Shown: positions 12,555-37,554 of the stretch, in pieces
Position numbering within the stretch: position 1 is the stretch's first letter
How the letters are laid out: every line of letters begins with the position of its first letter
Assembly (NCBI GenBank): GCA_023343535.1
Contig: GCA_023343535.1_3944.1
Source of the DNA: a phage
Direction: 5' to 3' (one strand)
Length of the DNA stretch: 38,998 nucleotides
Translations under genes and position numbers: made by a program
The notes under the pieces: model-generated
The model's database searches: none
What the model saw: the letters and a program-made list of their open reading frames with translations, nothing else
Told to the model about the DNA's origin: nothing

Positions 12555-13595
12555 ATGGAGAAGTACACATTAACAAAACTTCCCGATTCAGTTACACATG
12601 TTTTTATTGACTCTGACAGTATTGCCTATAAAGGTGCTTGTGTAGTTGAGAAAGCAAAATATAAATATGTCAATAAACTCACAGCAGAAGAATCTGAACC
12701 ATTTGATAATGCGAAAGATGCTGCAAGATGGTTAGCAGACCAGAGAATCCTTGTGGAAGAACTTGGCCTGACATTTGATGAAGATGAATGGGAAAGACAG
12801 ACTTGGAAAGAAGCTAAGAGTGAAAAAGAAGCTATCATGGCTACTCAACAGGTTCTTCAGGAATGGCTTAAGGTTGTTGGTAAAGAGAGAACTTGGGTAG
12901 GTTATTTAACAGAGAAAGGTGTGCATAAACATAAAGACATTAAAGGTCTTGAGCACCAATATCAAGGTAACCGTAAAGATGCTGTCACACCAACACACTT
13001 AGTCGCTTGTCGTGAATATCTTTTATCCAGACCAGAGTTCAAGCTCTTAAAGGGTGGCTTCGAAGCCGATTCAATCGTAATTGCTAAAGCTGAAAAGATG
13101 GGTAAGAAAGCTGCTCTTATGAGTATTGACAAAGACCTTCGACAAGCTGAAGGGACGTATTGTATTGATATGACTTATGAAAAGTCACCACTAATTTTTA
13201 TCGCTGACAATAATGTTGGTGATATCTGGGATTGCCCTATCAAATCAAAACCAAAAGCTGCAAAAACAGTTGGTGTAGGTTTTAAATTCTTGTGTTATCA
13301 GGCTGTTGCTGGGGATAATGCAGACAACTACTTTGGTCTTAAAGGTGCTGGTAAAGTAGCTGTGATGAACGCTTTAGAGGGTAAAGAGACCTACAAAGAG
13401 TGTCTTGATGCTATCTATGAACTCTATGCTAAAAAAGAGTCTTACACCTATGTATCATGGGATGGACAGACTGTTACAAAGACACCGTTAGAGTTAATGG
13501 AACAGCATTTCTGGGTGGCATATCAAGAGAGAAATCCAAAAGATAATTTCTCTTTTAAGAAATATAATTGGGAGCCGTGTATGAATGAAGATTAA
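12555..13595 (+). CDS. 5'-3' exonuclease / flap endonuclease (T7 gp6-like)
   Basis: VFIDSDSIAY, SIDKDL and AGDNADNYFGLKGAGK resemble the T7 gene 6 exonuclease blocks (VMDGDW, SCDKDF, GDxxDxYxGIxGxG). Confidence 0.6.
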   Translation: MEKYTLTKLPDSVTHVFIDSDSIAYKGACVVEKAKYKYVNKLTAEESEPFDNAKDAARWLADQRILVEELGLTFDEDEWERQTWKEAKSEKEAIMATQQVLQEWLKVVGKERTWVGYLTEKGVHKHKDIKGLEHQYQGNRKDAVTPTHLVACREYLLSRPEFKLLKGGFEADSIVIAKAEKMGKKAALMSIDKDLRQAEGTYCIDMTYEKSPLIFIADNNVGDIWDCPIKSKPKAAKTVGVGFKFLCYQAVAGDNADNYFGLKGAGKVAVMNALEGKETYKECLDAIYELYAKKESYTYVSWDGQTVTKTPLELMEQHFWVAYQERNPKDNFSFKKYNWEPCMNED

Positions 13596-14082
13596 AGGAT
13601 TTGGCAATTGCCCCACCTATGGTCATTGGGTATCTTTATGTGGGGAAGTTGACCCCACTAAACATTTTGGCTTTGTCTATTTAGTACACTGTAAGAAGAC
13701 CGGACAATATTATATCGGAAAGAAACAACTTAACAGTGTGACAAAAAGAAAAGTTGCTGGGAAGACTCGGAAGAAGGTAGTCACTAAGGAGAGTGATTGG
13801 ATGACTTACGAAACATCTTCTGAGTATATTAAAAAAGATATTGAGAGTTTTGGAAAAGAGTCTTTTGACTTTTACATTATCCAAACCTACTACACAAAAG
13901 GTGGTCTAGTTTATGGTGAAGCAAACCTTCAACATAAGTTCGATGTAATGACAAAAAGGATTGACTCGAAGCTCAGACTCTTCTACAATGCCAATATTGC
14001 AGCAATTAAGTTTATTACTAAAGAAACTTATGAAGATGCTGAAAAAAGAATCCATAAGGTAATGAAAGCAAATTGTGCTTGA
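13585..14082 (+). CDS. GIY-YIG nuclease-like protein (possible homing endonuclease)
   Basis: GFVYLVHCKKTGQYYIGKK matches the GIY-(x10)-YIG spacing; overlaps the exonuclease stop. Confidence 0.4.
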   Translation: MKIKGFGNCPTYGHWVSLCGEVDPTKHFGFVYLVHCKKTGQYYIGKKQLNSVTKRKVAGKTRKKVVTKESDWMTYETSSEYIKKDIESFGKESFDFYIIQTYYTKGGLVYGEANLQHKFDVMTKRIDSKLRLFYNANIAAIKFITKETYEDAEKRIHKVMKANCA

Positions 14083-14103: not shown

Positions 14104-14352
14104 ATGTTTAACAAAAGTAAAGCTGTGAGTCATGTAGCAAAAGTTGACAGCAAGATTGAAGAACTTGAGCGCATCCTTGCAAATGCTAGAGAGTCAATAC
14201 TCAAAGAAGTTGAAGCTGTTGAATCTCAAATGCAGCACCTAATGCTTAAACGTCAAGAGCTACGTGAGCATCTAGAATATATTGAAACACGAGAGCTAAA
14301 GGTTAACAAATATTTTAAGGAGTCCGAATGTTTAACTCAAGAGAATCAGTAA
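14104..14352 (+). CDS. small coiled-coil protein
   Basis: ORF-track start 14089 is TTG; ATG at 14104 follows GAGAGAG. Confidence 0.45.
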   Translation: MFNKSKAVSHVAKVDSKIEELERILANARESILKEVEAVESQMQHLMLKRQELREHLEYIETRELKVNKYFKESECLTQENQ

Positions 14353-15083
14353 AAAACTGGAACCTTCGTTGTGGAAACACTCAAAAGCAACCTTACAGTG
14401 ATGAGTATTGGGAATCTTTAAAATCTCAATCTCTGTGTATGCTTGAAGAAGCAAAAGAGCTTGTAAAAGCAATTGAAGAGAAAGACCCCATTGAGACACT
14501 GGATGCTCAGGCGGATTTGCAATATGTTCTTGACGGATTGATTTATCTGTCACAACATGACCATAACGGTGCTATGAAAGCTGTTTGCCATAATAATGAC
14601 CTGAAGTACACAGATGACTATGAAGAAGCTTTAAAACGTCTTGCAGACATTGAAAAGCGTACTGGTCAAGAGTGTATTATCAGAATGTCAGTAGTTGATG
14701 GTAAAGAGTGGTATGCGATTGTTCGTGCAGCCGATGGGAAGATTATGAAGCAATCAAATCTCCCTAAAGTACAGCTTGGTGAATACATTGTAGAGCTTGA
14801 AAGCCAAGAACTTTTTGTGGTAGTATCTGAGACATGCGTTATCTGCAAAGGTATTGTAGGTAGCTTAAAGGATTTGGATGTAGATGGTTTTGTAGAAGTT
14901 AATCCAATTACCTCTAAAGCAGATAAAGACTTCTGTAAAGAGAACGGACTATGGATTGCAGATATTGTCTACTATGATGGTGAGCAGTTCCATGTAACCT
15001 CATACCCGAAACTGAATTATGATGCTAATAACCTGAAGTGCTGGTTAAAAGGGGTTGGTTATAATGGATTCACAGAACATTAA
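14328..15083 (+). CDS. hypothetical protein
   Basis: 251-aa ORF with AAGGAG Shine-Dalgarno. Confidence 0.5.
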   Translation: MFNSRESVKNWNLRCGNTQKQPYSDEYWESLKSQSLCMLEEAKELVKAIEEKDPIETLDAQADLQYVLDGLIYLSQHDHNGAMKAVCHNNDLKYTDDYEEALKRLADIEKRTGQECIIRMSVVDGKEWYAIVRAADGKIMKQSNLPKVQLGEYIVELESQELFVVVSETCVICKGIVGSLKDLDVDGFVEVNPITSKADKDFCKENGLWIADIVYYDGEQFHVTSYPKLNYDANNLKCWLKGVGYNGFTEH

Positions 15084-19871: not shown

Positions 19872-22016
19872 ATGAACAAAGTACAGATTATTAAAAAGAA
19901 TGGCTCACTCGAAGAACCTGATATCAAAAAAGTTTTAGCAGCAGTCACAAAGTCAGCTAATAGGGTTGGGTATAAAGAACTCCCACCAGATGTTACCCAA
20001 GCTCTTGAGTCAGCATTTATGAGGATTCTGGTAAAGTCCACTAAGCAGAATAATTTGCTAATTTCTGTAAATGATATTCACAGTATTGTTGAGGGTGCTT
20101 TGGCAGAAGTCAATCACGAGATTTATGAGTCTTACTCAACATATAGAAATTACCGTAAAGAGGTTGCTCAAAATTGGGATGAACTCTACCAGAAGACCAA
20201 AGATACACTCTTCTTAGGTGACCGAGAAAACGCTAATTTTGACAGCAGTTTAATTTCTACAAAAGGCTCAATTATTCGTGGTTATCTGACTAAAGAAATC
20301 TTTAAACAGTACCATTTAACACCAGAGGAACTTGAAGCCATTGAAAAAGGGTTTATCTATATCCATGATTTAAGAGACCTAATTTTTGGTGGTATCAACT
20401 GTTGCCTGTTTGACATTGGTAAAGTCCTGAAAGGTGGCTTTGAAATGTCTGGCATCGAATATTGTGAACCAAAGTCTGTGCTGTCGGCCTTACAGGTTAT
20501 TGGTGACGTAGTTCTTTCAGCAACTGCACAGCAATTTGGTGGCTTTACTTTAGCAGAGATTGATAAGGTACTTGTACCGTATGCTAAGAAGTCTCTACGC
20601 TATCATGCTGAGAAAGCAGCATCGTATGGTATTCCTAAAGAACATTACCATAATTATGTCATGGGGCAGCTACAGATTGAACTAACTCAAGGTTTCCAGT
20701 CACTTGAAATGAAGCTAAATACTGTACCTTGTAGCCGTGGGGATTTTGCATTCACAACTTTGACATTCGGGTTACTTGACTCAGATATGTCCAATGAAGA
20801 TAACCGACTGCAATATATGATTGCAAGTACTCTCCTAGATGTTCGTATGAATGGACAAGGTAAGAGCAAGAAACCTGTTGTATTCCCTAAACTGGTTTAT
20901 ATTTATGACCAGAAGAGACATAATGAGAATATCTGTCAAGGCCACCTGTACAGTAAAGCTATAGAGTGTTGCTCTAAAGCAATGTATCCAGATTTCTTAA
21001 GTGTATCTGGTCATGGTGCTGTAGCAGAAGCTTTTGAGCGTTCTGGCAAGGTAATTTCGCCGATGGGTTGTAGAGCCTTCTTATCTCCATATCTTAATGA
21101 GGATGGGGAAGAGTTCTACGTTGGTCGTGCTAACATTGGTGCTGTATCTTTGAACTTGCCAATGATTTACCAGTATTCTAAAGAGAATGGTTTAGATTTC
21201 TGGAAAGAGCTTGATAAGTACCTAGAAATGATTCGCAGCTTCCACAAGAAACGCTACGAAATGATTGCTAATATGCCAGCAAGTTCTAACCCTCTTGCAT
21301 TCACACAAGGTGGTCTGTACAAAGGGAATAAGAAGCCTACTGACAAGGTTGGCTGGGATATCGTGAAGTCCTTCACAGCTTCTTTTGGGGTTACTGCGCT
21401 TGATGAGCTATCTGTTCTTGCTGAAGGTAAACGACTTCATGAAGTTGGAAGCTGTAGTTTTGCATATGATGTTCTGGAATATATCAACATGAAGACTGAA
21501 GAGTTTAAAAATGAAGATGGCTTCTTATATGCAGTCTATGGCACTCCAGCAGAATCACTTTGTGGAACTCAGCTAAAACAGTTCAGAGAAATGTTTGGTG
21601 TTATCAAAGGTGTTTCTGATAAGGAATATTTTACAAACAGTTTCCATATGAATGTTGCAGCAGACATCTCACCATTTGAGAAGCAGGACTTAGAAGAGCC
21701 ATTCTTCCATATCTGTAGAGGCGGCAGAATCCAGTATGTAAGGGTAGCTAACCCAGAAAACTTAACAGCACTTAAAAGTTGTATTACAAGAGGGATGTTG
21801 AAAGGTTTTTATCAGGGACTTAACTTTGACTTAGCAATCTGTGAACATTGTGGTAACAGACCAAAGGCTGATGTTGAAGAATGTGAGGTCTGCCATTCAC
21901 ATGACATCTCTGTGATTAACAGAGTGTGTGGGTATCTAGGATGGACTAAGATTAAAGGTGAATCCCGAATGAACGATGCAAAAATCGCTGAGATTCGTGA
22001 CAGGATTTCTATGTAA
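19872..22016 (+). CDS. nrdD: anaerobic ribonucleoside-triphosphate reductase (class III)
   Basis: 714 aa; C-terminal glycyl-radical block RVCGYLG; Cys-rich C-terminal region CEHCG ... CEVCHSHD. Confidence 0.85.
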   Translation: MNKVQIIKKNGSLEEPDIKKVLAAVTKSANRVGYKELPPDVTQALESAFMRILVKSTKQNNLLISVNDIHSIVEGALAEVNHEIYESYSTYRNYRKEVAQNWDELYQKTKDTLFLGDRENANFDSSLISTKGSIIRGYLTKEIFKQYHLTPEELEAIEKGFIYIHDLRDLIFGGINCCLFDIGKVLKGGFEMSGIEYCEPKSVLSALQVIGDVVLSATAQQFGGFTLAEIDKVLVPYAKKSLRYHAEKAASYGIPKEHYHNYVMGQLQIELTQGFQSLEMKLNTVPCSRGDFAFTTLTFGLLDSDMSNEDNRLQYMIASTLLDVRMNGQGKSKKPVVFPKLVYIYDQKRHNENICQGHLYSKAIECCSKAMYPDFLSVSGHGAVAEAFERSGKVISPMGCRAFLSPYLNEDGEEFYVGRANIGAVSLNLPMIYQYSKENGLDFWKELDKYLEMIRSFHKKRYEMIANMPASSNPLAFTQGGLYKGNKKPTDKVGWDIVKSFTASFGVTALDELSVLAEGKRLHEVGSCSFAYDVLEYINMKTEEFKNEDGFLYAVYGTPAESLCGTQLKQFREMFGVIKGVSDKEYFTNSFHMNVAADISPFEKQDLEEPFFHICRGGRIQYVRVANPENLTALKSCITRGMLKGFYQGLNFDLAICEHCGNRPKADVEECEVCHSHDISVINRVCGYLGWTKIKGESRMNDAKIAEIRDRISM

Positions 22017-24002: not shown

Positions 24003-24026
24003 GGGAACTGTAAAGGTTCCCTTTTT
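24003..24026 (+). terminator. intrinsic terminator
   Basis: GGGAAC / GTTCCC stem, 7-nt loop, TTTTT. Confidence 0.55.
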
Positions 24027-24040
24027 ATTTTGGAGATAAT

Positions 24041-24556
24041 ATGTACCTGTCAAACCTGAAACGTTCTGCTGCAATGTCAGTGTTAAGACTCAGTTTTGAG
24101 GAACGTCAAGAGTTCATTGACTCCCACCAATACGACCCTTCTAACTCCAATCACATGATTCTCTGGAATCGTGACAGTACTCGTGAAAGAGCACTTGTCC
24201 GTTATTACCCACACTACACAATAGATAACCTATATGAATGGTGTGTTGTGAAGAACACTATTGCAACACTGAACAATCTTTGCAGGTATACAGGTAAGCA
24301 AACATTTACATTAGGCCACCACAAACCTGTTACAAAGGGTGGTGAGCATCACTGTGCAAACTGGTTTATCCAGACTAAACTTGATAACCAGAAGCAAGGA
24401 GATAACCTTCTAAGCACTCCTAAGATGACCTATGAAGAGCAAGAGAAATATATCAAAAATAATATGCCAGATGTGCTTGACAACAACTATACAGATTTGG
24501 CAATATCTCTCCTGTTGAAGTTCGAGACAGTTTATAGGGCGACTTACAATGGCTAA
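24041..24556 (+). CDS. HNH endonuclease-like protein
   Basis: GHHKPVTKGGEHHCANW ... N fits the HH-x-P-x3-GG-...-N HNH pattern. Confidence 0.4.
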   Translation: MYLSNLKRSAAMSVLRLSFEERQEFIDSHQYDPSNSNHMILWNRDSTRERALVRYYPHYTIDNLYEWCVVKNTIATLNNLCRYTGKQTFTLGHHKPVTKGGEHHCANWFIQTKLDNQKQGDNLLSTPKMTYEEQEKYIKNNMPDVLDNNYTDLAISLLLKFETVYRATYNG

Positions 24557-24827
24557 AGAGAAGTGGGAGATTTTACCATTAGTCAGTGAAGGTGGTAATG
24601 GTTGTGAAATGTACATGATACGTGGTCATGTTCCAGAACCAATTGCACTTGAGATGGTAAACAACTTTACAGATGGCTCTTACAAAGACTTAGGGGAGCC
24701 AACTATAAAGCAGCAATGGGTAAAGCCTGTACCAGACAGCACAGGTAACTGTAGTGTACTTTATCACGTTGTAGACCCTGTAAAATGCAAATCTGCAATG
24801 GCAGTAACAAACGTAACTTTTGATTGA
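24549..24827 (+). CDS. hypothetical protein
   Basis: 92-aa ORF overlapping the upstream stop. Confidence 0.4.
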   Translation: MAKEKWEILPLVSEGGNGCEMYMIRGHVPEPIALEMVNNFTDGSYKDLGEPTIKQQWVKPVPDSTGNCSVLYHVVDPVKCKSAMAVTNVTFD

Positions 24828-24836
24828 GAGAAAATT

Positions 24837-25292
24837 ATGATTTTTTGCAGCTTCCAAAAAAGAATTATTGAGATTCTATACAATAAGTTTGGGACAGATA
24901 ACACATTTGACTCAAATGAAGCTATTGAAGCCCTACAAGAAGGAAGTGATTACATCAAAAAACAGCCAATAGCAAACATCAGGTACTACTTGACTCAGAT
25001 GAGAAAGTGGGGTGTGCTCATCGTGGTAGGACAGATTAAGCAACAAGGGAGGATGCTCATCAACCAATTAAATAGAGGTTTTATTGAGAAGCACATTCAG
25101 CTAGACTATTTACTTAAAGAGCCACGAAACCAACGTGAAGAGCAGCAAAAAGACTTAAGTGGTGGTGTAGGTGTGTCTCCAGACATAAAATTCTTTATTG
25201 GTGAGTTGATGTTTGATACACTCCAAGATGCTGTTGAACACTGCAAAAAGTATATTATCAAAGTAAAACGTGCAAAAATTATTTGGGAGTAA
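24837..25292 (+). CDS. tandem paralog family member A1 (unknown function; winged-helix-like N-terminus inferred)
   Basis: Shares N-terminal (MIFCxxQKxxIEILYxxFGTxNTFDSNEAIxAL), central (GRxxINQLNRxFxEKHIQL) and C-terminal (EHCKxxxIKVKxAKxIWE) blocks with 25714-26178. Confidence 0.6.
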   Translation: MIFCSFQKRIIEILYNKFGTDNTFDSNEAIEALQEGSDYIKKQPIANIRYYLTQMRKWGVLIVVGQIKQQGRMLINQLNRGFIEKHIQLDYLLKEPRNQREEQQKDLSGGVGVSPDIKFFIGELMFDTLQDAVEHCKKYIIKVKRAKIIWE

Positions 25293-25296
25293 TAAC

Positions 25297-25692
25297 ATGT
25301 TTGAGCTTCTGAAGGTTCTGTATATAAATTTTGGCTATGATAAAACATTTTCTGGCTCACAACTAACTAAGGTTTTTAATAAATATCTACCACATGCTTC
25401 AATCAGGGATAAAGCTAATTGGTCTCACAGATTACGTAAAAGTGGGTACATTAGTGTTGTTGGAGCGACAGGATTTAATAATGAGTATCTTATGAGAATC
25501 AATGAAAGCAAAGCTAAAAATGTGCTTTTAAATTGTAATGACTATCAACAAAAGGATGAAGAGGTCAGTGTAGGTGAAGTAGGGTACTTCATAGGTGACA
25601 TACACTTTACCAGTATGGAGGCAGCAGTTGAGCATTGTAAGAGGACGGTTATCCAAACAAAAAGAAAGCGTATTGTTTGGGAAGAAGTTTAA
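25297..25692 (+). CDS. tandem paralog family member B1 (unknown function)
   Basis: ATG at 25297, 4 nt after A1 stop. Shares ELLKVLYxxFGYDKTF and AxEHCKxxxIQxKRxxxVWE with 26183-26563 and the C-terminal block with the A members. Confidence 0.55.
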   Translation: MFELLKVLYINFGYDKTFSGSQLTKVFNKYLPHASIRDKANWSHRLRKSGYISVVGATGFNNEYLMRINESKAKNVLLNCNDYQQKDEEVSVGEVGYFIGDIHFTSMEAAVEHCKRTVIQTKRKRIVWEEV

Positions 25693-25713
25693 ACATTTGA
25701 TTAGGAATACACT

Positions 25714-26178
25714 ATGATTTTTTGCAATTTACAGAAGCACGTAATAGAGATTTTATACAAAACCTTCGGGACAGAAAACACTTTTGACTCTAACGAAGCA
25801 ATTGACGCATTAAGAGAGAATAGCCTTTTTATACGAGGCCAGTCAATCAGTAATACCCGTGGGTATCTAACAATGTTAAGACAGTCTGGTGTACTACTGA
25901 CTGTAGGGCAGGTAAAAAGCAAAGGTAGACTAAGTATTAATCAATTAAATCGGGCCTTTATGGAGAAGCACATACAACTGTCAAGGATGCTAGATAACAC
26001 GCGTGAAGAGTTGGGGAGTTCACAAAAATCAAACTTATCTGAGGTTAAAGATGTTGATGTACAACCTGACGTAAGATACTTTATCGCGGATGTTATGTTT
26101 AAAACACTAGATGAAGCTATTGAGCACTGCAAAGAGCATCTTATTAAAGTTAAACATGCAAAAGTTATTTGGGAGTGA
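25714..26178 (+). CDS. tandem paralog family member A2
   Basis: Roughly half of residues identical to A1 by eye; same conserved blocks. Confidence 0.6.
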   Translation: MIFCNLQKHVIEILYKTFGTENTFDSNEAIDALRENSLFIRGQSISNTRGYLTMLRQSGVLLTVGQVKSKGRLSINQLNRAFMEKHIQLSRMLDNTREELGSSQKSNLSEVKDVDVQPDVRYFIADVMFKTLDEAIEHCKEHLIKVKHAKVIWE

Positions 26179-26182
26179 TGTT

Positions 26183-26563
26183 ATGATTGAACTGTTAAAA
26201 GTCCTGTATAATGAGTTTGGCTATGATAAAACATTTACTTGCTCACAGATACGTAGTATCCATGACAAGGAATTTCCAGATGTATCCAAGACAAACAAGT
26301 CAACTCGGTTCAATCGTCTTCGCCAGAGGGGTTACATTAAAATAGTTGGATACAAGAAGAACTCTTTCGAGTATGTAATGCAGATTAACAGAGAAGTATC
26401 AAGTAAAATACTTGAAGAGCCAACAGCCGAAGAACAAAAGATACAAGATGGTGAAGTTCGCTTCTTTGTGGAGAAGGAAAGTTTTGGGTCAATAGATGAA
26501 GCTATCGAATATTGTAAAAAGAACATTATCCAGATAAAGCGTAGAAAGGTTATTTGGGAATAA
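26183..26563 (+). CDS. tandem paralog family member B2
   Basis: ATG at 26183, 4 nt after A2 stop; homologous to B1 with conserved C-terminal EYCKKNIIQIKRRKVIWE. Confidence 0.55.
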   Translation: MIELLKVLYNEFGYDKTFTCSQIRSIHDKEFPDVSKTNKSTRFNRLRQRGYIKIVGYKKNSFEYVMQINREVSSKILEEPTAEEQKIQDGEVRFFVEKESFGSIDEAIEYCKKNIIQIKRRKVIWE

Positions 26564-26577
26564 AGAGAGAGAAAACT

Positions 26578-27459
26578 ATGAAAACATCTATTCGTGTTAT
26601 AATTCATTCACCGACAAAAGGGTCTCATGAAGAAGAGTTTAACATCATCCAGTTCCCTTCTGGTGAGATTGGTGGACACTTTTCACAAGAGCTTGTTGAT
26701 TTTACTGCTTATGCAGCATCATCCATCAACAACGTGATTATGATTGTAAAGGGTTATGACAAAGACACATTATTTGCTGTGGCACTTGCTAAAGAAGCAA
26801 TTGACGATTTAGTACCCCATAAGTTTGCTATGAAGACTGCTATCTTTTACTATTTGCCAAATGCACGTTACGACCGTCACATGTTTAAAGGTGATGCAGC
26901 AGCTTTGAAAGTGTTTGCACAACAGGTTAATGCAATGGGTTTTGATGCAGTCTGTGCAGTTGACCCTCACAGCTATGTACCAGATAACCTGTTTAACTGC
27001 TTCCAGAGTATTCCTCAAAAGGAAATTGCAGTTCACTATGCAAATGACCCTCTAATTGATTACTTAGTAGCCCCAGATGCAGGTGCTGCTAAGAAGATTG
27101 CAGAGACTGCTAAAGAGGTGGATAAACCATACATCACAATGTCTAAAGTACGTAACCTCAAGACTGGTGAAATTACTGGTATGCGAATCCTTGATGATGT
27201 TGATTTGACAGATAAAACCGTCATGATTCTGGATGATATTTGTGATGGAGGACAAACCTTCATAGAAGCAGCTAAACATCTTCGTGAAGCAGGTGCAAAA
27301 CGTGTGGAACTCTATGTAACGCATGGTATCTTCTCTAAAGATGTTGAAAACCTTCTTGACAATGGTATCGACCATATTTACACTACAAACTCTTTAGGCG
27401 AAGCTAAAGACCGTGGCTTAACACATTATAGTCAAGTTACTGTAGCAAACCTTGATTGA
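26578..27459 (+). CDS. ribose-phosphate pyrophosphokinase (Prs)-like protein; candidate ADPR-pyrophosphate synthetase (Adps) of an NARP1-type module
   Basis: C-terminal block VMILDDICDGGQTFIEAAKHLREAGAKRVELYVTHGIFS closely parallels the canonical Prs PRPP-binding region (VLVDDMIDTGGT ... GAKRV ... THPIFS). ORF-track start 26554 is TTG; ATG at 26578 follows GAGAGAG. Confidence 0.75.
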   Translation: MKTSIRVIIHSPTKGSHEEEFNIIQFPSGEIGGHFSQELVDFTAYAASSINNVIMIVKGYDKDTLFAVALAKEAIDDLVPHKFAMKTAIFYYLPNARYDRHMFKGDAAALKVFAQQVNAMGFDAVCAVDPHSYVPDNLFNCFQSIPQKEIAVHYANDPLIDYLVAPDAGAAKKIAETAKEVDKPYITMSKVRNLKTGEITGMRILDDVDLTDKTVMILDDICDGGQTFIEAAKHLREAGAKRVELYVTHGIFSKDVENLLDNGIDHIYTTNSLGEAKDRGLTHYSQVTVANLD

Positions 27460-27468
27460 AAGTTTATA

Positions 27469-27489
27469 GGGGCTTAAAAGCCCCATTTT
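27469..27489 (+). terminator. short hairpin + U-run between the Prs-like and NAMPT-like genes (attenuator or weak terminator)
   Basis: GGGGCT-TAAA-AGCCCC then ATTTT. Confidence 0.35.
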
Positions 27490-27504
27490 GAGAGAGATTA
27501 AAAG

Positions 27505-29286
27505 ATGACTAAATCACTTTATGCAGTACCAGCAGGTTTAAACGCAGATGCTTACAAATCTGGTCATGTTTACCAGTATCCTAGTGCAACAGAGTACTTG
27601 ATGTTCAACCTGACACCACGTAGTGACAAATGGTTTAACAGCCCCTTAGCAATTGATGGTGTAGTGGCTTTTGGTATTCAACGTTTCGTTAAAGATTACT
27701 TAATAGACCACTGGAACGCCACTTTCTTTGAACGTGATAAAAAAGAAGCAATTGACGAAATCTTAGAAGTCATGAATGGTGTTCTGGGCAAAGATGCTAT
27801 CGGTCGAGAACATTGGGAAGCACTTCACGACTTAGGTTATCTACCAGTTGAAGTATACGCTGTAGAAGAAGGCACAGTTGTTCCAATGCGTGTTCCAATG
27901 ATTGTCTTCCAGAACACTGTTTCAGGTTTCCATTGGGTAGCAGGTTATCTAGAAGACGCTTTCTCTGCTGAGATTTGGAAGGCTTGCACCATTGCAACTA
28001 TTGCATTGCACTACAAACGTATCTGTAAGAAGTGGGCTGACCTCACTTGCGACAACGACTTGCATTTACCTTATCAGTGCCATGACTTTGCTATGCGTGG
28101 TATGTCCGGCTTTACTGATGACGCATTCAACGCTGTAGGACACTTAACCAGCTTTAAAGGGACTGATAGCTTCCCTGCTGTATACACGGCTAAACGTATC
28201 TATGGGCAGACCTATCCAATCTCTGATATTGGAAGCTCTGTACCAGCCACTGAACACTCTGTAATGTGTGCAAACATTGCTTGGGAAGGTGGTAACGAGT
28301 TGGTTGAAGAAGAAAGACGATTTAAAGGTGAGTTACAAACCTTCCGTCATTTCTTAACAGAAACTTACCCAACTGGTATTGCAAGTATTGTTTCAGACAC
28401 TTATAACTTCTGGAGAACTGTGTCAGAAATCTTACCAGCACTTCGTAAAGAAATTATGGAACGTGACGGTAAACTGGTAATTCGTCCTGACTCTGGAGAC
28501 CCTGTACATATTGTCACAGGTTATAAAGCAATCCACTTAGAGTGTGCTAAAAAGGCTTATTACGAGCACCTAAGCAAGCTGGAAGCCAGTGACACAATGC
28601 TGAATGCTGTTCTGAACATGAAGCTTGAAAACATCAGCTATGGTATTGCTGGATGGCTACTGTCAGAAGGCTACGAAATGGTTGTTGACCGAGAAGACTT
28701 TGAAGTTGCTGATACAGTGATGTTGAAAAATGCTTATATGGTTGGCTCTGCAAACGTTGTAACACGTCCTGTAGCTGAGATTGATGGAGCTATTAAGACA
28801 CTGTACAACATCTTTGGGGGAACTATTAACTCTAAAGGATTTAAGGTACTGGACGAGCATATCGGCCTTATCTATGGTGACTCTATCACACTGGAACGTG
28901 CAAACGAAATCCTGAAGCGTCTGTATGAAATGGGTTTTGCAAGCTCTAACGTGGTGTTTGGCGTAGGTTCTTACACTTACCAGTACATGACTCGTGACAC
29001 CTTTGCATTTGCTGTCAAAGCAACTCTTGCAAGCATTGGTGGTAAAGAGATTATGCTTGCAAAAGACCCTAAAACAGATAGTGGTGTTAAGAAATCTGCC
29101 TTTGGTGGTGTAGCACCTATGTGGGATGGTGATAAGCTGAAAGCTGTAGATGGCTATGGATTCCAGAGTTTTGCAGATGTACTTGACCACCCAGCTTGTG
29201 CTTTACGTTTAGTCTTTAGTGACTCTGAGCAGTTCGGTTACACAACTCTTGGTAATATTCGAAATAATATTGACAAGCAGCTTTAA
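27505..29286 (+). CDS. nicotinamide phosphoribosyltransferase (NAMPT/NadV)-family protein; candidate nicotinamide-ADPR transferase (Namat) of an NARP1-type module
   Basis: NAMPT-family blocks DAYKSGHVYQYP, HDFAMRGMSG ... SFKGTDS ... SSVPATEHS, SDTYNFW, IRPDSGDP; 593 aa. Confidence 0.8.
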   Translation: MTKSLYAVPAGLNADAYKSGHVYQYPSATEYLMFNLTPRSDKWFNSPLAIDGVVAFGIQRFVKDYLIDHWNATFFERDKKEAIDEILEVMNGVLGKDAIGREHWEALHDLGYLPVEVYAVEEGTVVPMRVPMIVFQNTVSGFHWVAGYLEDAFSAEIWKACTIATIALHYKRICKKWADLTCDNDLHLPYQCHDFAMRGMSGFTDDAFNAVGHLTSFKGTDSFPAVYTAKRIYGQTYPISDIGSSVPATEHSVMCANIAWEGGNELVEEERRFKGELQTFRHFLTETYPTGIASIVSDTYNFWRTVSEILPALRKEIMERDGKLVIRPDSGDPVHIVTGYKAIHLECAKKAYYEHLSKLEASDTMLNAVLNMKLENISYGIAGWLLSEGYEMVVDREDFEVADTVMLKNAYMVGSANVVTRPVAEIDGAIKTLYNIFGGTINSKGFKVLDEHIGLIYGDSITLERANEILKRLYEMGFASSNVVFGVGSYTYQYMTRDTFAFAVKATLASIGGKEIMLAKDPKTDSGVKKSAFGGVAPMWDGDKLKAVDGYGFQSFADVLDHPACALRLVFSDSEQFGYTTLGNIRNNIDKQL

Positions 29287-29301
29287 AAGTATATGATAAG
29301 A

Positions 29302-29322
29302 GGCTCCTACGGGAGCCTTTTT
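29302..29322 (+). terminator. intrinsic terminator
   Basis: GGCTCC-TACG-GGAGCC then TTTTT. Confidence 0.6.
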
Positions 29323-36768: not shown

Positions 36769-37554
36769 ATGGGTATTGTAAAAATCATCAATGGTGATAT
36801 CTTTGCTGCATTTGATAAAGGTAAGTTTGACATCATTGGTCACGGTTGTAATTGTATGAATTTAATGGGTGCAGGTATCGCTGACAAGATTTCTAAACTT
36901 TACCCAAAAGCATATGAGACCGATACAGAAGTTTACCTATATGCAGGTGGCATAGGTCACAAACCCTGTGAAAATTTACTGGGTAATTTCTCTGTAGTAC
37001 GTTTAAAACAAGGTCGTATAGCTAACCTTTACACTCAGCTTAAGACTGGTAAAGATGCCCGATACAGTGCTTTAGAGTCATCTTTGAAACAGCTTAACAG
37101 ATACTGTGAAGTCAATCAGTTGAAGAAAGTCGGGTTACCTATGATTGGTACAGGCATCGGTGGGCTAGACGCTCAAGCCGTCACAGTTATCATCAATCAG
37201 GTTATGAAGAGTGTAGATGTTTATCTATATGTCTATGAAGGAGAGATGTACCACAAGTTACTCTCAGGTTGGAAGAACTACTGTGAACCAGAATACTTTG
37301 CAGGTGTAGTTGTGTTCACAGATAACGCAGTTACCCTCTTCAGACGAAGAAAAGGTAAGATACATCAAAGTAACCCTCCGGTTGAAAAGATGTCTCTAAG
37401 TAACGCTCTAGTTACCCACCTGTCGAAGAGCAATCACAGGATTGCAGTAACATTTGGCAGTGATGCAGATGCTTACATCTATGCAAGAACTGATGAGGAT
37501 ATCGAGACAGTTTTCTCTTCACCAGAAGTTACCTTCTTAGACGCAAAGAACTAA
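36769..37554 (+). CDS. macro-domain protein (ADP-ribose binding/processing) with C-terminal extension of unknown function
   Basis: GDIFAAFDKGKFDIIGHGCNCMNLMGAGIADKI parallels the macro-domain GDIT ... AIVNAANxxLxxGGGVxxAI block; VGLPMIGTGIGGLD parallels the second block (hAFPxIsTGIyGyp). Confidence 0.65.
   Translation: MGIVKIINGDIFAAFDKGKFDIIGHGCNCMNLMGAGIADKISKLYPKAYETDTEVYLYAGGIGHKPCENLLGNFSVVRLKQGRIANLYTQLKTGKDARYSALESSLKQLNRYCEVNQLKKVGLPMIGTGIGGLDAQAVTVIINQVMKSVDVYLYVYEGEMYHKLLSGWKNYCEPEYFAGVVVFTDNAVTLFRRRKGKIHQSNPPVEKMSLSNALVTHLSKSNHRIAVTFGSDADAYIYARTDEDIETVFSSPEVTFLDAKN

Follow-up and report, generated by a model that had tools for sequence, protein, structure and literature searches.

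Gene content and layout of the locus

The 38,998-nucleotide phage sequence analysed here (contig GCA_023343535.1_3944.1 of NCBI GenBank assembly GCA_023343535.1; referred to in its full length as the window) carries two adjacent genes on its plus strand, the products of which resemble phosphoribosyl pyrophosphate (PRPP) synthetase (Prs) and nicotinamide phosphoribosyltransferase (NAMPT), respectively. From their sequences and the evidence presented below, the two genes very probably form a functional operon of nicotinamide adenine dinucleotide (NAD+) reconstitution pathway 1 (NARP1) in a Felixounavirus, and they are referred to by the names of the two NARP1 genes, adps and namat (Table 1). The window belongs to Felixounavirus, its 3-kb operon region being 98% identical at the nucleotide level to Escherichia phage finno. 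A search with this 3-kb region matched approximately 255 phage records, nearly all of them from Felixounavirus.

Table 1. Positions of the features discussed in the text (window coordinates; aa, amino acids; nt, nucleotides)
Feature	Position	Strand	Description
adps	26578..27459	+	Predicted ADP-ribose pyrophosphokinase, Prs-family, 293 aa from ATG
namat	27505..29286	+	Predicted nicotinamide ADP-ribose transferase, NAMPT-family, 593 aa
Intergenic hairpin adps/namat	27469..27484	+	GGGGCU-UAAA-AGCCCC, GC-rich, weak U tail
Intrinsic terminator at operon end	29298..29321	+	10-bp stem, 5 GC pairs, T-run
Divergent 5' adps allele segment	26578..27117	+	540 nt, aa 1-180; from sliding identity and synonymous divergence (dS)
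Altered ribose-5-phosphate loop of Adps	27232..27258	+	aa D219-T227, DDICDGGQT
Namat selectivity-clamp loop (SCL)	27613..27645	+	TPRSDKWFNSP; K42 at the 'third' position
Namat lineage-specific insertion	28537..28785	+	Folded subdomain, approximately aa 345-427; from alignment gap and AlphaFold2 model
Namat selectivity-clamp helix (SCH)	28966..28998	+	aa 488-498, GSYTYQYMTRD, aromatics at positions 3 and 7
Macro-domain protein	36769..37554	+	261 aa, Adpp / phrog_335 'phosphatase' family; PF01661 32.9 bits; phrog_335 E 4e-112
Four tandem paralogous genes	24837-26563	+	Approximately 140-154 aa each, two alternating subtypes, all phrog_29478 (unknown function)

Both open reading frames (ORFs) were recovered, from the ORF listing as well as from the raw sequence, at exactly the coordinates given in a preliminary description of the locus made from the sequence alone, and all peptide blocks quoted in that description were present. 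An alternative TTG start at position 26554 would lengthen the adps product by 8 aa, while relatives are annotated from the ATG. The two genes are co-directional, are separated by a 45-nt gap, and are followed by a single terminator after the second gene; this terminator, previously placed at 29302-29322, was confirmed, with slightly shifted limits. The hairpin described in the gap is likewise real (-12.6 kcal/mol, z = -2.66 relative to shuffled sequences). Its stem is followed only by AUUUU and it was not called by the terminator scan; it might serve as a leaky terminator or in RNA stability. Since no further terminator-like site was found by the scan on the plus strand from 24023 to 29298, genes upstream of the pair may be co-transcribed with adps-namat. 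The promoter scan was uninformative (17 sites against 15.2 expected).

For some of the relatives (ESCO50, dune, Mushroom, VpaE1, skuden and others), the match to the operon came in two pieces, extended over approximately 470 bp more in the record, and had an HNH homing endonuclease annotated under it. This insertion could sit in the adps-namat spacer, which in the window (27460-27504) bears the hairpin and is free of any HNH-type insertion. Felixounavirus-type NARP1 DNA was also found, at approximately 91% identity, in Staphylococcus phage SA1 (GU169904) and two Campylobacter phage records, which are probably mislabelled or contaminated entries rather than cases of cross-phylum transfer.

Orthology to the NARP1 operon of phage Bas63

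In the proposed pathway, an NAD+-cleaving immune effector (of the SIR2, TIR or SEFIR type) would split NAD+ into ADP-ribose (ADPR) and nicotinamide; Adps would then transfer a pyrophosphoryl group from ATP to the free ribose of ADPR, giving ADPR-pyrophosphate (ADPR-PP), and Namat would swap the pyrophosphate for nicotinamide to yield NAD+ directly. Such a pathway would be independent of the host nicotinamide mononucleotide (NMN) adenylyltransferase, and would stay idle unless NAD+ is cleaved. NAD+ reconstitution and rescue of the phage have been described for Bas63 (in vivo) as well as for SpbetaL1, FADO, Gary and DyoEdafos.

NARP1 was discovered in the BASEL coliphage Bas63 (Escherichia phage JohannRWettstein), in which genes 79 and 80 encode Adps and Namat, respectively (Osterman et al., bioRxiv 10.1101/2024.02.11.579819). 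Bas63 is itself a Felixounavirus and was among the database matches to the window operon. The Bas63 genes (bas63_0079, 882 nt; bas63_0080, 1,782 nt) and the 45-nt gap between them equal those of the window in length, and the flanks are alike, with phrog_3500 and phrog_4726 genes upstream and rIIA/rIIB downstream. At the protein level, window Namat is identical to bas63_0080 at 586 of 593 residues (99%), the clamp motifs (see below) being the same in both, and window Adps, which has the same length as bas63_0079, is identical to it at 231 of 293 residues (79%). By identity and synteny, the window pair is thus orthologous to an experimentally validated NARP1. The two phages differ in that the first 180 residues of window Adps represent another, anciently diverged allele, in residue 226 of the Adps loop (Q in the window, R in Bas63), and in the presence in the window of a 1.7-kb cassette of four paralogs between the upstream gene and adps, which Bas63 lacks.

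Adps and Namat of phage finno, labelled 'Adps-associated' in the case of Namat, are listed in the supplementary tables of the NARP1 paper (bioRxiv 10.1101/2024.02.11.579819), and the finno Adps entry shares the N-terminal sequence of window Adps. The preliminary description had presented the pair as a candidate module, a status that no longer applies: the system is not new, its type lineage has been published, and the finno orthologues have already been tabled. The system is already known and is detectable by standard anti-defence annotation.

Adps: family assignment, catalytic residues and substrate loop

Profile searches placed both proteins far above chance in the families first proposed for them, Prs-like and NAMPT-like. 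For Adps the matches were to TIGR01251 (ribP_PPkin, 127.6 bits with a cut-off of 113), phrog_619 (E 8e-98), and Pfam Pribosyltran and Pribosyl_synth. The broad TIGR01251 subfamily was the sole Prs model passed; none of the cut-offs of the NCBIfam Prs equivalogs was reached (the score was 93.8 bits where 297 are required, for instance, and at best 106.3 where 296 are), and in alignment the protein lacks the C-terminal 20 or so residues of E. coli Prs, both of which argue against a housekeeping PRPP synthetase. In BLASTP comparisons, window Adps scored 119, 116 and 101 bits with the Gary-type, ICP1 and SpbetaL1 Adps, respectively, compared with 67 bits for E. coli Prs. Together with the 79% identity to Bas63 Adps, which is a seed of the published Adps clade, these scores and the failed Prs cut-offs place the protein, by pairwise and profile comparison, in the Adps clade. 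The closest validated Adps outside Ounavirinae is that of Vibrio phage Gary, which has the gene order Adps-Adpp-Namat, termed NARP1-AP (bioRxiv 10.64898/2026.01.28.702374); the score of 119 bits was obtained with the near-identical Rocket24 protein (41% identity over 188 aa).

The catalytic residues are conserved. K190 and R192 of window Adps align with K162 and R164 of SpbetaL1 Adps, of which K162 corresponds to K197 of B. subtilis Prs, and mutation of K162 inactivates SpbetaL1 Adps and the pathway. The RxDR and DPHS motifs are kept, and all residues that are invariant across Adps and Prs are present. The loop difference from Prs pointed out earlier was also found (D223-G-G-Q-T227 in the window, D224-T-G-G-T228 in E. 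coli Prs), and had been called suggestive, not decisive. It does remain suggestive, but it is a weaker argument than was implied, because the loop varies among validated Adps proteins: it reads DGGRT in Bas63 and finno, DGGAS in the Gary type, DGAAS in ICP1, SFGGT in SpbetaL1 and SYGGT in FADO. Only one loop change is common to all Adps compared, namely that the Thr following the first residue is lost. DGGQT was considered as a signature of the Adps family and was rejected, as the loop varies across the six aligned Adps proteins.

Residue 226 (nt 27253-27255) is Gln in the window, Arg in Bas63 and finno, Ala in the Adps of Vibrio phages, and Gly in the Adps of Bacillus phages as well as in E. 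coli Prs. Judging from this alignment, substitutions are evidently tolerated here.

Allelic mosaicism and selection

Relative to Bas63, adps is divided in two. In bins of 60 nt, identity to Bas63 is 48-88% over the 5' 540 nt, with a dS of 1.6, although this segment is 100% identical to finno; 3' of it, identity to Bas63 rises to 90-100% and dS is 0.2-0.45. Correspondingly, residues 1-180 of Adps are approximately 65-70% identical to those of Bas63, and the C-terminal catalytic 113 residues approximately 95%. Adps identities across Felixounavirus are bimodal (approximately 94-98% and 77-80%). Both genes are under purifying selection: against Bas63, the ratio of nonsynonymous to synonymous divergence (dN/dS) was 0.026 in namat, and in adps it was 0.13 over the 5' part and 0.07 over the 3' part. 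Given a dN/dS of 0.13 with saturated dS, the 5' segment is an old allele swapped by recombination, not the product of fast evolution; diversifying selection on the Adps N-terminus, as would signal an arms race, was rejected on the same grounds. The operon has been subject to fine-scale recombinational mosaicism, with a presumed breakpoint close to nt 27118-27178. In the region 27118-27900, the window diverges from finno to about the same level as from Bas63.

The divergent N-terminal allele, in combination with Q226, could in principle have shifted the specificity of Adps to a modified ADPR, for instance ADPR-1''-phosphate or the 2'-phospho-ADPR derived from NADP+, in which case the operon would not be equivalent to that of Bas63. 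The low identity of the first 180 residues, a dS in this part approximately 8-fold above that of namat, and the variability of the loop position among Adps proteins (Q, R, A or G) would be in keeping with such a shift. Set against this, the allele is under purifying selection, every residue invariant across Adps and Prs is kept, the catalytic C-terminus is nearly that of Bas63, both alleles pair with a nearly identical Namat, and the finno allele is filed among the Adps in the published table. A changed specificity is for these reasons regarded as improbable.

Namat: catalytic core, selectivity clamp and structure

Namat matched NF006629 (467.8 bits), phrog_448 (E 2e-201), and Pfam NAPRTase and NAMPT_N. 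A catalytic core and an adenine 'selectivity clamp' were defined in the 2026 structural study of SpbetaL1 Namat, the clamp consisting of a helix with the motif GS-X-Phi-X-Phi-X-Phi-TRD, in which positions 3 and 7 are aromatic, and of a variable loop that gives a stacking residue, which is either an Arg at position 3 or the residue that follows a Lys or Tyr at this position; Bas63 Namat is cited there as being of the Lys/Tyr-position-3 type, in which the next residue stacks (PMC12774641). Both elements are present in window Namat. The helix carries the published signature, and the SpbetaL1 and Gary-type proteins read GSFTYQYNTRD and GSFTYQYVTRD, respectively, while true Nampts differ at the stacking positions (GAQTYQRNTRD in H. 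ducreyi NadV and GGALLQKVDRD in Xanthomonas Nampt). In the loop, window Namat has K42-W43 as Bas63 Namat does, with W43 predicted to stack on the adenine; neither H. ducreyi NadV nor Xanthomonas Nampt has this pair.

Conserved residues of window Namat include D15, Y17, F195, R198, D221, H251, R327, D329, G458-D459, G488-S489, Y490, Y494 and T496-R497-D498. Among them are the core features of a Nampt-like enzyme (the catalytic His, and an Arg that corresponds to R306 of SpbetaL1), and all published ligand-contact residues of Namat are conserved or conservatively replaced. The best PDB sequence matches were to SpbetaL1 Namat (9w5w/9w5x, E 1e-127). The AlphaFold2 model (predicted local distance difference test (pLDDT) score 92, predicted template modelling score 0.91) resembled the Namat crystal structures most closely (template modelling (TM) score 0.95, E 2e-54), followed by H. 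ducreyi NadV (0.93) and human NAMPT (approximately 0.90).

Among the closest known systems is the NARP1 of SpbetaL1, which has been characterised by both biochemistry and structure (PDB 9w5w/9w5x; PMC12774641), and with which the window shares the gene order, the catalytic Lys of Adps, the Namat core, the SCH motif and the Namat fold. The two systems differ in sequence (full-alignment identity 47% for Namat and 28% for Adps), in the SCL (K42-W43 in the window, R40 in SpbetaL1), in the Adps loop, and in that window Namat has two insertions, one of 77 aa and folded, the other of approximately 14 aa. The larger one (residues 351-427) is absent from both SpbetaL1 and FADO Namat. In the full-length model it forms a compact alpha/beta subdomain of helices and strands (pLDDT approximately 90-95), while the insertion modelled alone (aa 340-433) was poor (mean pLDDT 66). 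The long form of Namat is kept in Ounavirinae-type phages down to approximately 46% identity, and the constraint on the insertion (dN/dS 0.036) matches that on the remainder of Namat. The main text of the Namat structural paper makes no mention of it (PMC12774641).

Functional interpretation

The locus consists of an Adps-clade Prs homologue adjoining a co-directional Namat-clade Nampt homologue, the arrangement by which a NARP1 operon is recognised. The NARP1 assignment follows from orthology to the founding operon, the catalytic and selectivity residues, the structural match of Namat, the operon architecture and purifying selection, and by analogy with the orthologues we infer the same chemistry and phenotype in the window phage. 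In Bas63, deletion of genes 79-80 lowered plating on SIR2-HerA cells approximately 20-fold, infection with the wild type partly restored NAD+, the effect was still present when both pncC and nadR were deleted from the host, and ADPR-PP (m/z 720.010) was detected solely with wild-type Bas63 in combination with the defence system; Bas63 Adps 'did not purify well' (bioRxiv 10.1101/2024.02.11.579819). Of the SpbetaL1 enzymes, Adps is active on ADPR, and its control with ribose-5-phosphate yielded no product; Namat supplied with PRPP mixed with ADPR-PP makes NAD+ only.

These data bear directly on classical salvage, in which a true PRPP synthetase and a true NadV or Nampt would make NMN, to be completed to NAD+ by host NadR or PncC. 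Salvage is what the database names and the profile matches say (ribose-phosphate pyrophosphokinase and nicotinamide/nicotinate phosphoribosyltransferase), and E. coli Prs and H. ducreyi NadV (PDB 9ke8) or human NAMPT do share the folds and the core chemistry of the pair (transfer of a pyrophosphoryl group to ribose C1, and its displacement by nicotinamide). Moreover, H. ducreyi NadV was also a strong sequence match to window Namat (352 bits), in addition to its structural similarity, and Namat homologues still make NMN from PRPP in vitro, at roughly half human Nampt's level of activity. The NARP1 substrates, ADPR and ADPR-PP, differ in carrying an extra AMP moiety, and the window proteins differ from the salvage enzymes: Adps stays under the Prs thresholds, and the aromatics that stack on adenine, missing from H. 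ducreyi NadV and Xanthomonas Nampt, are present in Namat. Since the Bas63 orthologue works in the pncC nadR double-deletion host and ADPR-PP accumulates, and SpbetaL1 Adps made no product from ribose-5-phosphate, classical salvage is largely refuted for the Bas63 orthologue, and it is highly unlikely for the window pair. The view of the preliminary description, that the pair is NARP1-like rather than a PRPP/NMN salvage module, was supported, and taken further than a likeness, by the positional orthology to Bas63 genes 79-80 and by the clamp and catalytic residues.

A NARP2-type route, in which a Nampt and a phage Nmnat or NadR-like adenylyltransferase make NAD+ from PRPP regardless of whether a defence has fired, as in phages such as KVP40, would also include a NAMPT-family enzyme, but it has a negligible chance of applying here: the window ORFs scanned gave no match to an Nmnat, NadR, Nudix or PnuC domain and none is annotated in Bas63 from 1 to 68 kb, the partner gene is an Adps homologue, and NARP2 Nampts form a separate clade that is unassociated with Adps, while the finno orthologue is labelled 'Adps-associated'.

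Several observations weigh against the NARP1 assignment. The phenotype of Bas63 is a partial NAD+ rescue only (bioRxiv 10.1101/2024.02.11.579819), and the NMN synthesis from PRPP that Namat keeps in vitro, according to the literature, makes some classical activity conceivable. The first 180 residues of Adps belong to a different allele from that of Bas63, with Q226 in the substrate loop where both Bas63 and finno carry R, and FADO Adps (68 bits by BLASTP) is no nearer to window Adps than E. coli Prs is. The direct biochemistry comes from homologues that are 36-41% identical to window Adps over the aligned C-terminal two-thirds (28% full-length for SpbetaL1).

Rather than block NAD+-depleting immune systems one by one, NARP1 reverses the damage that this entire class of systems causes. 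Its presence predicts resistance of the phage to Thoeris I, DSR1/2, SIR2-HerA, SEFIR and similar defences, and is relevant to host-range prediction and the choice of therapeutic phages. It also has value for annotation, as the names under which the two proteins stand in public records (ribose-phosphate pyrophosphokinase and nicotinamide/nicotinate phosphoribosyltransferase) are misleading about their chemistry. With regard to the pair itself, nothing is added to what has been published; the small extensions that can be tested are the Namat insertion, a Macro-domain gene and the cassette upstream of adps.

An unlinked Macro-domain gene of the Adpp family

Searches with Pfam and PHROGs found no Macro/Adpp or RyR/RyDEP domain within two genes on either side of the operon, only families of unknown function, and the locus consequently does not have the NARP1-AP organisation, in which Adpp is encoded within two genes of the operon. 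The genome does encode a homologue of the Macro-domain phosphatase Adpp, 7.5 kb and approximately 14 predicted genes downstream of the operon (15 in Bas63, where it is conserved as bas63_0095). Rocket24 (Gary-type), not ICP1, was used as the Adpp reference; the ICP1 NARP1 locus consists of the two core genes only. The window protein is 28% identical over 164 aa (E 3e-14) to Rocket24 gp171, encoded by a Macro gene embedded in Thalassavirus NARP1 operons, and gp171 in turn is 98.7% identical to the product of the Vibrio phage Gary gene beside Adps, that is, to the characterised Adpp, which is an ADPR-1''-phosphate (ADPR-1''-P) phosphatase (bioRxiv 10.64898/2026.01.28.702374).

By its sequence, the window protein is a possible NARP1 accessory converting ADPR-1''-P to ADPR. 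It differs from the Gary situation in lying outside the operon, in having a C-terminal extension of approximately 100 aa without a domain match, and in belonging to a family often encountered in phages that have no NARP1: phrog_335 occurs in approximately 2,700 phage records, including T4-like phages that lack NARP1, and a NARP1-specific role can for this reason be put forward only as a hypothesis. More tentatively, and with the odds against it, Felixounaviruses including Bas63 and the window phage might run a 'split' NARP1-AP, in which the Macro protein would turn ADPR-1''-P made by aRES-type defences into ADPR for the unlinked Adps and Namat. If this were true, the aRES-resistant fraction of NARP1 phages would be well above the reported 15%, and it would be missed by the published Adpp survey, which searched within two genes of the NARP1 operon only (bioRxiv 10.64898/2026.01.28.702374).

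The upstream cassette and other neighbouring genes

The cassette of four paralogs is located directly upstream of adps in the matches for which coordinates were compared. Among the approximately 255 related records, the four-copy form was present in 11 and a two-copy form in 5 more. A search of solved structures found no PDB relative of the paralogs.

Further upstream on the plus strand, a nucleotide-metabolism region encodes a SegE-like GIY-YIG homing endonuclease (13585-14082, 98 bits) and, at 14328-15083, a protein of 251 aa bearing a PRA-PH/MazG-like pyrophosphohydrolase domain. NrdD is encoded by a single ORF in the window (19872-22016), while in Bas63 it is split by a homing endonuclease.

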